This document shows positions 30,900-64,000 of a DNA stretch of 64,000 bases, piece after piece. Each line of letters opens with the position of its first letter. Position 1 is the first letter of the stretch. The position numbers were made by a program, and so were the translations under genes. The stretch spans positions 3,424,001 to 3,488,000 of the forward strand of contig CM000153.2 of the NCBI GenBank assembly GCA_000004695.1. Reading direction: 5' to 3'. Origin of the DNA: Dictyostelium discoideum (lineage: Eukaryota). The notes beneath the pieces were generated by a model. It was given only the letters and a program-made list of their open reading frames with translations. It was not told the origin of the DNA and did not search any database.

Positions 30900-31985
30900 T
30901 TAAAATTCTTTGTTTATTAAATTTTCATTATCAAAATTTTCTTCATAATAATAATTATTATTTTTAAAAAAAAAAACATTATCAATATCACCAACCACTT
31001 GAACTTCTTTAAAATGTTCAAAGTCTGATTCACCATCAAATGATTCTCCACCAACTGATAAATCATCAGCACCACTGCTATCATCACCATCATCTTTATT
31101 TTTTTGATTTATATTTAAATTTTTAGGGAAAACTTGAGAAAATTTAGCACTTGTAAAATCATCACCAAATTGTGATGTTTTCACTTTTTTTTTTCTTTGA
31201 TAGCGTTTCTCTAATAATATTAAAACTCTTTTCTTTAAATTATATTTATAAATTAATAAACCAATTACCATTAAAATAAAAAGTATTAAAAAAGCCATTA
31301 AACCAATAAAAATATGAGAGTCTATTAAGTTTTCAACTTTATGATGATTATGGTAATGATGGTAATGGTGGTGATGATGATGATGGTGAATGAAATTATT
31401 GGGTTTATTATTATTATTTTTATTATTATTTTTATTATTATTATTATTATTATTATTATTATTATTATTATTATTATTATTATTATTATTATTATTATTA
31501 TTATTATTATTATTATTATTATTATAATTATTATAATTATAGTCGCTTGAAAAATTATTTGAATTTAAAATTTTTGATTTACTTGAAATTAAACCTTGAA
31601 AATCACAATTTAATTTTGAAAATTGATTGGAATAAACTTCTATAATTATTGACTCTATATCAATAGAGTTATAATATGGATTTGTTAATTGATCAGAACC
31701 TTCAAAATTATTTATAAGGAATGATCTCTCTATATCACTTTGGTCTCCAAGTTCATTATTATTATTTATATTACCACAAACATTGTTATTATTATTATTA
31801 TTATTGTTATTATTATTACTAATATTTTTATTATTATATTTTTTATTACTATTTACAACTAATTTTAGTATTGGTTTTATTGGTTTTATTGGTGACGATG
31901 GCTGTTGTTGTGGTTGCTGGAATTGGTTTTCTTTTAACAATGATGTTTCAAAAAGAGAAACAGATTTAGAGGATGTGAAATCCAT
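30900..31985 (-). CDS. degenerate or truncated L-family paralogue: no signal peptide, poly-Asn and poly-His tracts, TM and conserved cytoplasmic tail
   Basis: It shares PILKLVVNSNKKYNNK, VCGNINNNNELGDQSDIERSFLINNF and SDQLTNPYYNS with 32501..34534 (NSNSPIKYNNSKCGNIDNNEPPCIKLGDAGDRARSFLLNNF, TQLIIQLTNPFYN). TM is IFIGLMAFLILFILMVIGLLIY. The tail (LLEKRYQRKK...GDIDNVFFFKNN) parallels MLEKRAKNR...GEVDNLFFYQDD. Confidence 0.5.
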   Translation of the reverse strand: MDFTSSKSVSLFETSLLKENQFQQPQQQPSSPIKPIKPILKLVVNSNKKYNNKNISNNNNNNNNNNNNVCGNINNNNELGDQSDIERSFLINNFEGSDQLTNPYYNSIDIESIIIEVYSNQFSKLNCDFQGLISSKSKILNSNNFSSDYNYNNYNNNNNNNNNNNNNNNNNNNNNNNNNNNNNNKNNNKNNNNKPNNFIHHHHHHHHYHHYHNHHKVENLIDSHIFIGLMAFLILFILMVIGLLIYKYNLKKRVLILLEKRYQRKKKVKTSQFGDDFTSAKFSQVFPKNLNINQKNKDDGDDSSGADDLSVGGESFDGESDFEHFKEVQVVGDIDNVFFFKNNNYYYEENFDNENLINKEF

Positions 31986-32500
31986 AATTATAAATTAAAT
32001 AATAATAATAAATATTTTATTTAACAATGAAAATAAGCATTTTATTACTTTGTTGAATTCAAAAATGATAAAAACTAAAAATAATTTATACCAAAAATAA
32101 ACCTTGAAAAAAAAAAAAAATTAAAAATTAAAAATAAAATTAAAAAAATAAAATAAAATAATTTTCATAACTTTTTCTCGATTTTTCAAACCATTTATAA
32201 AAAAAAGCCTGGTAGTATGATTTCGAAAAAATTGCGCTAGTTGTTATTATTGCAAAAAAAATAATATGAAATTAAAAGCCTTTTTTTTAATTTCCAATTA
32301 AAAATGAATGAATATTCAAACAAAACTAATATTTTTTTTTTTTTTTTTTTTTTCGCAGATCGATCCTTTTCAGTCACTCTTTTTTAGATATTATCACTTT
32401 GTTTTTAAAGAAAAATAAGGAATTAAAAAAAAAAAAAAAAAAAAGAAATAAAAAAAAATAAATAAAATAATATAAATTTGTTTATTTATTTTTAGTTAAT

Positions 32501-62480: not shown

Positions 62481-62953
62481 ATTTTAAAAAAAAATATTAA
62501 AAAATTTATTAAAAATATTAAATAAAATTTATTAAAAGTTTATTTTCACCAGAATAACCGATACCAGAAAAAAAAAAAAAAAAAAAACAAAAAAAAAAAA
62601 AAAAATTAAATTTGAAAAATATCGTTCATCCTTAATTATGAGGAAAAACTATTTTTTTTTTTTTTTTAAAAAGACTTTTATCTAGTTTTTGGCAAATGGT
62701 GTCAAGAAAAAAAAATATTTTTACTTTAATTTTTTTTTATTTTTTTTTTTTTATTTTTTTTTTTTCAAAATATCTTGCTCGAACTTATTTTTATTATAAA
62801 ATGATCAAAAACACTTAGAAACACAAGAACTCTTTTTTTTTTTTCTTTACTTTTTTTTCTTTTTTTTTTTTTTTTTTTTTTTTAAAAAAATATAACTTTT
62901 TTTTTTTTTTTTTTTTTTTTTTTTTTTTTTTTTAAATTTTATTTGTAATAAAA

Positions 62954-64000
62954 ATGTATAAAGGATTTAATTTTCTTTATTTGTCAGTAGTCTTATTGTT
63001 AGCATTTAATATCTCATTCACATTTTCACAAAACACTATTTCAGTTAATTATAATGTGCAAAGAAATTATAATTCATTTGAAGAATGTGGTTTAAATGGT
63101 GAACCAGTTTGTACATCATTGGAAGATGCAGGTAATAGAGCAATTTTATTATCAAAAACAAGTAATCCAACAAACATCATCAATATCATTGGTAATATTG
63201 ATGGATCAACACCTGTCACATTTGGTAATTTATATAATTATTGTGGTAAATTGTTTATTAGATCAAGTATTAGTAATGTCAATATTAATATTAATGGATC
63301 AAATTCGACTCAACAACCATTCCTCACCATTCAAGAAGCTGATCAACCAAATTCGACTTTTCCATGTTCAATTCCAAGAATATTTCAATTCCAATATATT
63401 AATTTTACAAATTGGGATCAAACACTTGTAAATATTAATATTAATCAAGAAACAGATTTAAATTCAGTTAATCCATCAAAGAGTTTAACAGTTTATTTTC
63501 AACTTGTAAATATAATTTCTTCAAGTAGTATTTTAAAGATTTATCCAAAGAACTTTGGTGAAAATTATAATTTACAAGCAATTAAAGTTTCATTTATATC
63601 AACAATTGGAATAGACTTAAAATCATCATCGGTTTTATTTTCACCAAGTTCAACCCAATATTATTTACCACCAATTTATTTAGCCGGTGCATCAGTAACT
63701 AGAATTTTAAGTTTATCAGATAGTACATTTGAATCAACACCATTTATTTTCTCTGATAATGGAGGTGTATCATCTGGAAGTTTCGTCGTTTCAAATAATA
63801 ACTTCTCTTCAAATCCATTCATTATGGCCGTCAATGGTGGAACTGTAGCACTTCCTACCCTTTCTTTTACAAATAATATTCTTTCAACATTTATTTACTT
63901 TTCAAATTTTTATAATCAACCATTAATTCAGGCTACATTTTCAAATAACATCTTTGGAAATTCTTTCGTTCAGAATAATAAATTTATGGAATATGAAAAT
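62954..64000 (+). CDS. L-family glycoprotein, 5' portion (runs off window end); tandem duplicate of 54635..56047
   Basis: ATG at 62954. MYKGFNFLYLSVVLLLAFNISFTFSQNTISVNYNVQRNYNSFEECGLNGEPVCTSLEDAGNRAILLSKTSNPTN... is about 90% identical to 54635..56047. The upstream 250 bp (62700..62950) is also homologous to 54380..54630. Confidence 0.65.
   Translation, partial: MYKGFNFLYLSVVLLLAFNISFTFSQNTISVNYNVQRNYNSFEECGLNGEPVCTSLEDAGNRAILLSKTSNPTNIINIIGNIDGSTPVTFGNLYNYCGKLFIRSSISNVNININGSNSTQQPFLTIQEADQPNSTFPCSIPRIFQFQYINFTNWDQTLVNININQETDLNSVNPSKSLTVYFQLVNIISSSSILKIYPKNFGENYNLQAIKVSFISTIGIDLKSSSVLFSPSSTQYYLPPIYLAGASVTRILSLSDSTFESTPFIFSDNGGVSSGSFVVSNNNFSSNPFIMAVNGGTVALPTLSFTNNILSTFIYFSNFYNQPLIQATFSNNIFGNSFVQNNKFMEYEN

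Follow-up and report, generated by a model that had tools for sequence, protein, structure and literature searches.

We report here that a 64-kb window of Dictyostelium discoideum AX4 (64,000 nucleotides of contig CM000153.2; positions below refer to this window unless another sequence is named) carries a tandem birth-and-death array of genes for a protein family that is confined to group-4 Dictyostelium. The ectodomain of these proteins is supported by a structural model as a right-handed parallel beta-helix of the pectin-lyase-like kind, a fold that commonly serves for gripping or cleaving polysaccharides. It occurs in secreted form, with a glycosylphosphatidylinositol (GPI)-like anchor signal, and as a type-I transmembrane (TM) protein with a cytoplasmic tail. 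The best explanation for the whole, to which we give slightly less than an even chance, is an array of non-catalytic beta-helix binders or receptors for extracellular polysaccharide or another extended ligand. In the window the family comprises nine related open reading frames (ORFs), called A to I in window order: seven clear paralogues (C to I), the divergent B and the remnant A. A preliminary description of this stretch had announced ten ORFs and listed nine; all nine are present in our ORF check at the positions tabulated below, and tblastn of each ORF against the window added no further copy or fragment, so that the number ten has to be corrected.

In pairwise tblastn inside the window, C, D, E, F, G, H and I are interlinked at E-values from 1e-10 to 1e-178, and a family profile made without B recovers B at E 3e-6 over profile positions 28-463, that is, nearly the full ectodomain. 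A matches B alone, in 33 N-terminal residues and in the TM and tail (TM helices at aa 227-245 in A and aa 567-585 in B), and its body is poly-N/His low complexity. Because only these parts match and the beta-helix body is missing, we regard A as a remnant; an upstream search for a signal-peptide exon of A gave none convincing. A is nonetheless intact in two other strains, with a ratio of nonsynonymous to synonymous substitution rates (dN/dS) of 0.38-0.43. C and E form an inverted duplicate with 82% nucleotide and 80% amino acid identity, and G and I share 91% of their nucleotides. The array runs more than 20 kb beyond the window end, where the adjacent AX4 sequence (L003) holds at least four further copies, which brings AX4 to at least 13 family loci across more than 55 kb. 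There the order G-X3-H, X3 being a gene of a second, co-clustered family, is matched by I-X3'-H2 and therefore constitutes a duplicated unit. Mixed orientation and recent duplications, both of which had been read from the window beforehand, are thus borne out.

The family has no place in any named sequence family, as had been suspected. A Pfam scan of the nine window proteins returned nothing at E<=1, Beta_helix, Pectate_lyase_3, Glyco_hydro_28, PbH1, Chlam_PMP, TIG and Agglutinin included, and a profile search against PDB sequences returned nothing below E 0.2. Exhaustive screening of 1.84 billion proteins with a HMMER profile yielded 18 representatives of the family, each of them from D. discoideum, D. 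cf. discoideum, D. citrinum, D. dimigraforme, D. firmibasis or D. purpureum; the screen gave no match in viruses, in bacteria, in the remaining dictyostelid groups or in any eukaryote outside the dictyostelids. We also considered a horizontal origin in bacteria or phage, but the screen contained no prokaryotic or viral match at E<=1e-3. When the N-terminal half of B served as query nothing was recovered, B itself included, probably owing to its N-rich composition. The AlphaFold2 model of G, built with 30 family sequences (pLDDT 87.5, pTM 0.87), starts with an N-terminal helix, after which come about 35 short strands. Every protein that Foldseek retrieved with this model is a right-handed beta-helix protein; the E-values are weak, at 4e-3 or higher, and sequence identity is 7-13%. 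Model and Foldseek matches therefore support, at the fold level, the beta-helix that had been guessed from the short repeats of the ectodomains; no specific family membership follows from them. Judged by this model, the sequence-orphan family falls into a known fold class, and its eukaryotic architecture is unusual. An Agglutinin (amaranthin-type) domain was considered for E (DDB_G0285617) and rejected, as neither E nor its 80%-identical paralogue has a Pfam match at E<=1 and the predicted fold is a beta-helix; the agglutinin name of this gene appears to be a legacy annotation. No paper about the family came up when the full-text literature was queried with 12 gene IDs and 6 UniProt accessions, the sole match being a table entry for the neighbouring gene iliA. 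In the papers we found, the family genes are present in supplementary tables and are not discussed in the main text.

The motifs quoted in the preliminary description proved essentially right: CxSLEDAGNRA, GNL(Y/F)xxC, NWxQT, YPKN, LPPxY and the C-terminal CxCxxC are present in our alignments, although several are degenerate in the C/E pair. Near-invariant positions in the 30-sequence alignment are C45, C53, D58, A59, G91-N92, C97, F123, C138, F151, N153-W154, Q156-T157, P198-K199, P240, G245, P263-F264, N282, P288, G430, S433, C450 and C453. Column conservation in this alignment peaks in the N-terminal, membrane-distal half and reaches its minimum at aa 320-400. A signal peptide and the shared architecture had been claimed for every ORF. 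This stands for the family with two reservations, since A has neither signal peptide nor beta-helix body and B is divergent. Each ectodomain does carry 5-20 NxS/T sequons, as the expression 'packed with' such sites had suggested; their number is not above that in composition-matched shuffles and falls below expectation in C, E and I. Because sequon density is compositional, we only infer that the proteins are surface glycoproteins.

Of the two sets into which the ORFs had been sorted, the secreted one (C, E, G and I) holds, as no anchor was seen in any of the four. In the membrane-anchored set, a genuine type-I TM topology is seen in B, F and H; A has a TM but lacks the ectodomain, and D ends in a hydrophobic C-terminus without cytoplasmic tail, which resembles a GPI signal or an anchor lacking a tail rather than a TM plus tail. 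Two tail subtypes do exist, one of the AQLE(H/R)(I/L) type and one, found in A and B, of the (E/D)(V/I)DN(L/V)FF type. TM members of several species share the juxtamembrane motif IYKRxKNxKY and, further on in the tail, the acidic segment ...EDEKAVSPxID...AYExxxED(F/Y)A(Q/E)(L/Y)E. Ectodomains evolve faster than tails: between F and the D. firmibasis protein P0019 the tail is 89.8% identical and the ectodomain 47.6%, and between F and its D. cf. discoideum orthologue the tail has a nonsynonymous rate (dN) of 0 (dN/dS 0.00) against an ectodomain dN/dS of 0.76. The conserved tail may serve sorting or signalling. In D. citrinum, a CBM49 cellulose-binding module takes the place of stalk and TM in two proteins, which come from different assemblies, a replacement that ties the ectodomain to a polysaccharide setting. 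The D. citrinum fusion that we could locate is a dispersed single-copy locus (L005 8001-9734), and no AX4 counterpart turned up in our searches.

Beta-helix glycosidases and lyases such as GH28, PL1 and PL6 need conserved carboxylates, or a Lys/Arg base together with Ca-binding acids, in their central coils. Across the 30 sequences the conserved charged residues of the Dictyostelium family are limited to E57, D58 and R62 in the cap helix and to E128, R142 and K199, and the helix body has no conserved acidic pair or triad and no conserved His; the charged positions, and the lack of an acidic pair or triad, are the same in the 26-sequence main subfamily. We read this pattern of charges as pointing to a non-catalytic scaffold. 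The ectodomains might instead be polysaccharide depolymerases, lyases or glycosidases, comparable to phage tailspikes, PL6, GH28 and GH110; secreted or displayed on the cell, they would break down the capsule or biofilm of bacteria or remodel the cellulose-containing matrix of the amoeba itself. We consider this unlikely, although Dictyostelium is bacterivorous, CBM49 is a usual companion of enzymes and is fused to one orthologue, and K199, R142, E128, W154 and Y242 are conserved. The missing Asp/Glu pair or triad and the missing His of the helix body speak against it, as do the identity of 7-13% to all enzymes, the lack of a Pfam or PDB sequence match and the tolerance of a dN/dS near 1 in the helix bodies of D and F.

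The substitution rates of this study come from a comparison with two strain genomes, D. discoideum GCA_054859355.1 and D. cf. discoideum GCA_054859205.1, which are two genomes and not a population sample. In the former the locus is collinear, all genes are intact and the orthologues are syntenic and 1:1, with amino acid identities of 92-96% (A: 80.6% by tblastn, 93.5% when codon-aligned). Family dN/dS lies at 0.20-0.43, against 0.12-0.24 for the flanking genes, which are 96.5-97.9% identical. The synonymous rate (dS) is 0.06-0.11 in the family, up to 0.14 in X3 and 0.064-0.073 in the flanking Atg11-like and polyketide-synthase acyl-transferase (PKS-AT) genes; as the flanks show this level too, the strain has diverged genome-wide. 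Against D. cf. discoideum the flanks have dN/dS 0.08-0.21, and the family members spread widely: C 0.17, H 0.25, E 0.30, G and I 0.30-0.34, B 0.38 (0.22-0.38 over both comparisons), D 0.68 and F 0.72, with amino acid identities of 78% in D and 85% in F. The helix bodies of D (aa 91-430) and F (aa 181-390) reach 1.27 (bootstrap 0.89-2.17) and 1.34 (0.74-2.66), compared with 0.26 in H and 0.20 in C. Since both regions were picked after sliding windows and are not significantly above 1, these two values are suggestive only. Over the longer distance to D. firmibasis, family ectodomains are 44-65% identical, against about 88-91% in the conserved segments of an unrelated gene within the cluster. The family thus evolves fast by duplication and divergence, and on the present evidence from two genomes it does not look tgr-like in variability. 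In D. cf. discoideum X2, another gene of the second family, is tandemly duplicated (L006 7526-8269 and 8856-9599), and the region orthologous to G (L006 12659-14073) has 12 stops in straight translation and yet is annotated with a 439-aa product; these two observations indicate copy-number or pseudogene variation between strains.

The preliminary description had likened the locus to tgrB1/tgrC1 in its genomic behaviour. Read in this way, the locus would be a self/non-self or mating-type-like recognition system, an analogue of tgrB1/tgrC1 with polymorphic ectodomains in cell-cell recognition, for which the clustered, mixed-orientation array with TM and soluble forms, the slower evolution of the tails relative to the ectodomains, the helix-body dN/dS of about 1.3 in D and F and the difference in X2 copy number between strains might be cited. 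We find this improbable. The intact 1:1 syntenic orthologues, with 92-96% identity and dN/dS of 0.2-0.43, are only modestly above the flanks; the values above 1 lack significance and belong to regions picked post hoc; Pfam finds no TIG/IPT domains; the expression lists point to vegetative and early-starvation stages instead of the aggregation stage at which a kin-recognition pair would be expected; and the conserved part of the ectodomain is the membrane-distal N-terminal half. The idea of tgr-like behaviour thus receives little or no support, with neutral-like or diversifying helix bodies in D and F only, against the more distant strain. Of the preliminary description as a whole, the unclassified family and its fold are upheld and the tgr-like behaviour is not.

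Information on expression comes from supplementary tables. In PMC4403905 the time-course columns were assigned by counting tabs, and the table gives list membership and no expression values. Its lists place C (DDB_G0285769) among the genes up at 1 h and 2 h on filters, E and iliA in the 3 h gradual-up list in suspension, F (DDB_G0285621) in the 8 h up list, G (DDB_G0285771) in an early 'down' list and DDB_G0285631, a member beyond the window end, in the 14 h down list. Overall, the members in these lists go up at 1-3 h or down after 1-6 h in suspension, and one goes down after 14 h (PMC4403905). In the tabulated data of PMC6902447, C rises by a log2 fold change (log2FC) of 3.46 (false discovery rate (FDR) 2e-9) after Mycobacterium marinum infection, and iliA by 5.4 at 6 h after Legionella infection. 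The bacterial-exposure RNA-seq table of PMC7078664 gives mean log2 counts per million (log2CPM) in vegetative cells of 7.3 for E and 5.5 for C; both have a log2FC of about -0.95 in one contrast. These lists point to growth and early starvation.

G+C in the window is 17-32%. One might dismiss the ORFs as pseudogenes or low-complexity noise of an AT-rich genome, given that A is a remnant, that the sequence beyond the window contains a 221-aa fragment and that the D. cf. discoideum region mentioned above has stops when read straight through. Nevertheless, long intact ORFs are kept across six species, most copies have dN/dS below 1, the fold is confidently predicted, and there are transcripts, which are regulated. 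Conservation and expression already refute noise for the whole family, and we give it next to no weight. The genes are kept in other isolates and are expressed, so the reservation of the preliminary description that the ORFs might be neither conserved nor expressed falls away.

We therefore return to the binders or receptors proposed at the outset. In a full member a signal peptide would be followed by a disulfide-containing N-terminal cap, with a helix bearing SLEDAGNRA, then by a right-handed parallel beta-helix of about 400 residues and by a C-terminal Cys knot (CxCxxC). The ectodomain would be released or would be tethered via a mucin-like stalk, either by a terminal hydrophobic segment or by a TM with a conserved acidic cytoplasmic tail. 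The beta-helix might act, without catalysis, as a platform that binds polysaccharide or some other extended ligand outside the cell, for example on bacterial surfaces or in the amoeba's own matrix. TM copies could couple binding to trafficking or signalling via their conserved tail, soluble copies would be free binders, and specificity may have been diversified by duplication and rapid change in the membrane-proximal half of the helix. Several points weigh against this proposal. Enzymes make up most of the top structural neighbours of the model, and in principle a lyase-type site could be built from K199, R142 and E128; the missing conserved acids argue against glycosidase or Ca-dependent lyase chemistry without proving that the proteins are non-catalytic. 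Moreover, the fold is a predicted model and not a solved structure, the developmental timing was read by column counting in a supplementary table, and a response to infection is documented in one family member only, C.

Exact look-ups name seven ORFs of the window, four of the family (C, D, E and F) together with iliA, X2 and X3, and the G ORF is 100% identical to AX4 DDB_G0285771. We take the DDB_G identifiers of the family and its neighbours to be those of chromosome 4 genes. The features of the array are collected in the table.

Table. Family members and interleaved genes of the array in the 64-kb window and in the adjacent AX4 sequence
Feature	Position	Strand	Description
A	30900..31985	-	Remnant paralogue of B type; 33-residue N-terminal motif, TM, ...GDIDNVFFF tail
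B	32501..34534	-	Divergent type-I TM member, 677 aa, N-rich insertions, ...GEVDNLFFY tail
C = DDB_G0285769	36993..38417	-	Secreted, 474 aa; exact match XP_638162; inverted duplicate of E
D = DDB_G0285729	42396..44270	+	Predicted beta-helix ectodomain, ~110-aa Thr-rich stalk, terminal hydrophobic segment
iliA = DDB_G0285615	45352..46119	+	Unrelated 255-aa secreted protein, 'induced after Legionella infection'
E = DDB_G0285617	47998..49428	+	Secreted member; database name 'agglutinin domain-containing protein'
X2 = DDB_G0285619	50787..51530	+	Second, co-clustered family of ~250-aa secreted proteins
F = DDB_G0285621	51963..53627	+	Type-I TM, 554 aa; short Ser/Thr/Pro stalk, TM, 60-aa acidic tail ending AQLEHI
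G = DDB_G0285771	54635..56047	+	Secreted member, 470 aa; protein used for modelling
X3 = DDB_G0285623	56410..57210	-	Second-family member, convergent with G; predicted long helical bundle
H	58506..60356	-	Type-I TM, 616 aa; (PTDT)n stalk, TM, 71-aa tail ending AQLERL
I	62954..64000	+	Secreted; gene truncated at window end, 473 aa when complete; 87% identical to G
I, remainder	adjacent AX4 sequence		Completes the 473-aa gene
DDB_G0285629	adjacent AX4 sequence		Second X3-type gene
H2	adjacent AX4 sequence		86% identical to H
Fragment	adjacent AX4 sequence		221 aa
DDB_G0285631	adjacent AX4 sequence		623 aa
Two X-type genes	adjacent AX4 sequence		Further X-type genes
Unrelated gene	adjacent AX4 sequence		1067 aa
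Further family member	adjacent AX4 sequence		610 aa

Among the interleaved genes, X2 and X3 are 35% identical and represent a family that is likewise found only in group-4 Dictyostelium. Membership of iliA, a known Legionella- and Mycobacterium-induced gene, in this second family was rejected at an hhalign probability of 0.5%. The similarly named iliL was rejected as a cluster member; it is DDB_G0281853, a gp130/GP138-like gene at another locus. In D. purpureum (L008 5258-15723) an iliA-like gene, a secreted member of the C/E kind (476 aa), an X2-like gene (248 aa) and a TM member (559 aa) follow each other in the order and strand that iliA, E, X2 and F have in the window (45352-53627). We therefore think that the array grew around an older four-gene block. 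X2 stands upstream of an F-type gene in D. discoideum, D. firmibasis and D. purpureum, and D. firmibasis also keeps the interleaving, with a convergent pair of G-type and X3-type genes.

It might be asked whether this block works as a unit. The beta-helix proteins, X2/X3 and iliA would then be parts of a multi-component antibacterial or bacteria-sensing module that combines glycan targeting, ClyA-like membrane attack and a TM paralogue as receptor. The order and orientation kept between D. discoideum and D. purpureum, the interleaving of X and beta-helix genes in D. firmibasis too and the induction of iliA and C by infection would agree with such a module. On the other hand, conserved synteny can be passive, E and C dip slightly (log2FC about -0.95) in one contrast of the bacterial-exposure data, and the X3 sequence by eye has no long hydrophobic hairpin or beta-tongue, no hydropathy scan having been run; we regard the module as an improbable explanation. 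In its wider form, with the four-gene block and its expansions as an amoebal innate-defence or prey-handling module, the idea is to our mind just as much of an outside chance. In that case the beta-helix proteins might recognise bacterial surface glycans, the ClyA-like bundle might act on membranes, the TM paralogue might signal or direct uptake, and an arms race could be behind the fast helix bodies of D and F.

Some further features of the window were noted. Directly upstream of the array lies a stand-alone polyketide-synthase-type acyl-transferase ORF (29352-30725, minus strand; Pfam Acyl_transf_1, E 2e-31), which two other strains also keep, with a length of about 452 aa, and which may be a PKS fragment or a trans-AT. 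Two paralogous ORFs on the plus strand (35087-36253 and 40173-41387) are interleaved with the family and are about 35% identical across their C-terminal halves; in one of the pair Pfam finds a weak mitochondrial-carrier match (E 2.6e-5). For the first ORF dN/dS is 1.32 against D. cf. discoideum and the high-scoring segment pairs against another strain are broken, so that it may be decaying or contain introns. A dispersed repeat of about 400 bp occurs in intergenic positions inside and outside the array (8595-9021, 14192-14529, 20194-20619 and 36627-36947); it is 68-70% identical to L001 4654-5063 and may represent either an AT-rich repeat or what is left of a mobile element after decay. Over the Thr-rich stalk of D runs a Val-rich antisense ORF of 159 aa (43796-44275, minus strand), which is the mechanical complement of ACN codon repeats and therefore no gene.

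Dictyostelium serves as a standard model when the interactions of phagocytes with bacteria and the evolution of multicellular recognition are studied, and the array of at least 13 genes has been annotated merely as 'hypothetical', with one copy misleadingly named for an agglutinin domain. New are the predicted beta-helix ectodomain in secreted, GPI-like and TM-with-tail forms, the restriction to group 4, the near-neutral or possibly diversifying rates in some copies and the position of the array in a conserved block alongside an infection-induced gene. The array is thus a concrete, testable candidate for an amoebal glycan-recognition system. If the proteins were ordinary matrix components, they would still make a tidy case of an orphan family resolved to a known fold.

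Several known systems invite comparison. Bacterial beta-helix adhesins and autotransporter passengers (Bordetella Vag8, Streptococcus pneumoniae PfbA, the Lactobacillus reuteri SRRP binding region) have no detectable sequence relationship to the Dictyostelium family (7-13% identity). Here the proteins belong to a eukaryote and are anchored by a type-I TM or a GPI-like signal instead of a beta-barrel or LPXTG, and the Cys-capped ends are peculiar to the family. No outer-membrane beta-barrel translocator, as in autotransporters of the Vag8/pertactin type, is present either, the C-termini consisting of a single TM plus tail, of a hydrophobic segment or of nothing further. In comparison with the pectin-lyase-fold enzymes and tailspikes (PL6, PL1/9, GH28, GH87, GH110, RbmB, Sf6/CBA120), the catalytic Asp/Glu constellation is not conserved, Pfam Beta_helix, Pectate_lyase and Glyco_hydro_28 do not match, the model is a monomer, and membrane-anchored forms with cytoplasmic tails exist. 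TgrB1 and TgrC1 are type-I membrane proteins from lineage-restricted clustered genes with quickly evolving ectodomains. The clustering and the fast ectodomains, both measured here, are shared with them; the predicted fold is a beta-helix instead of IPT/TIG, strain divergence is far lower with 1:1 orthologues, and expression is early or vegetative. The gp130, GP138 (cfrA) and iliL proteins are likewise Dictyostelium-specific surface glycoproteins, some of them infection-induced (iliL), although the family profile does not retrieve them and its identifiable AX4 matches all map to the present cluster. In animals, the PbH1/G8 proteins TMEM2, CEMIP and fibrocystin are membrane or secreted proteins as well, and their parallel beta-helix engages extracellular polysaccharide.

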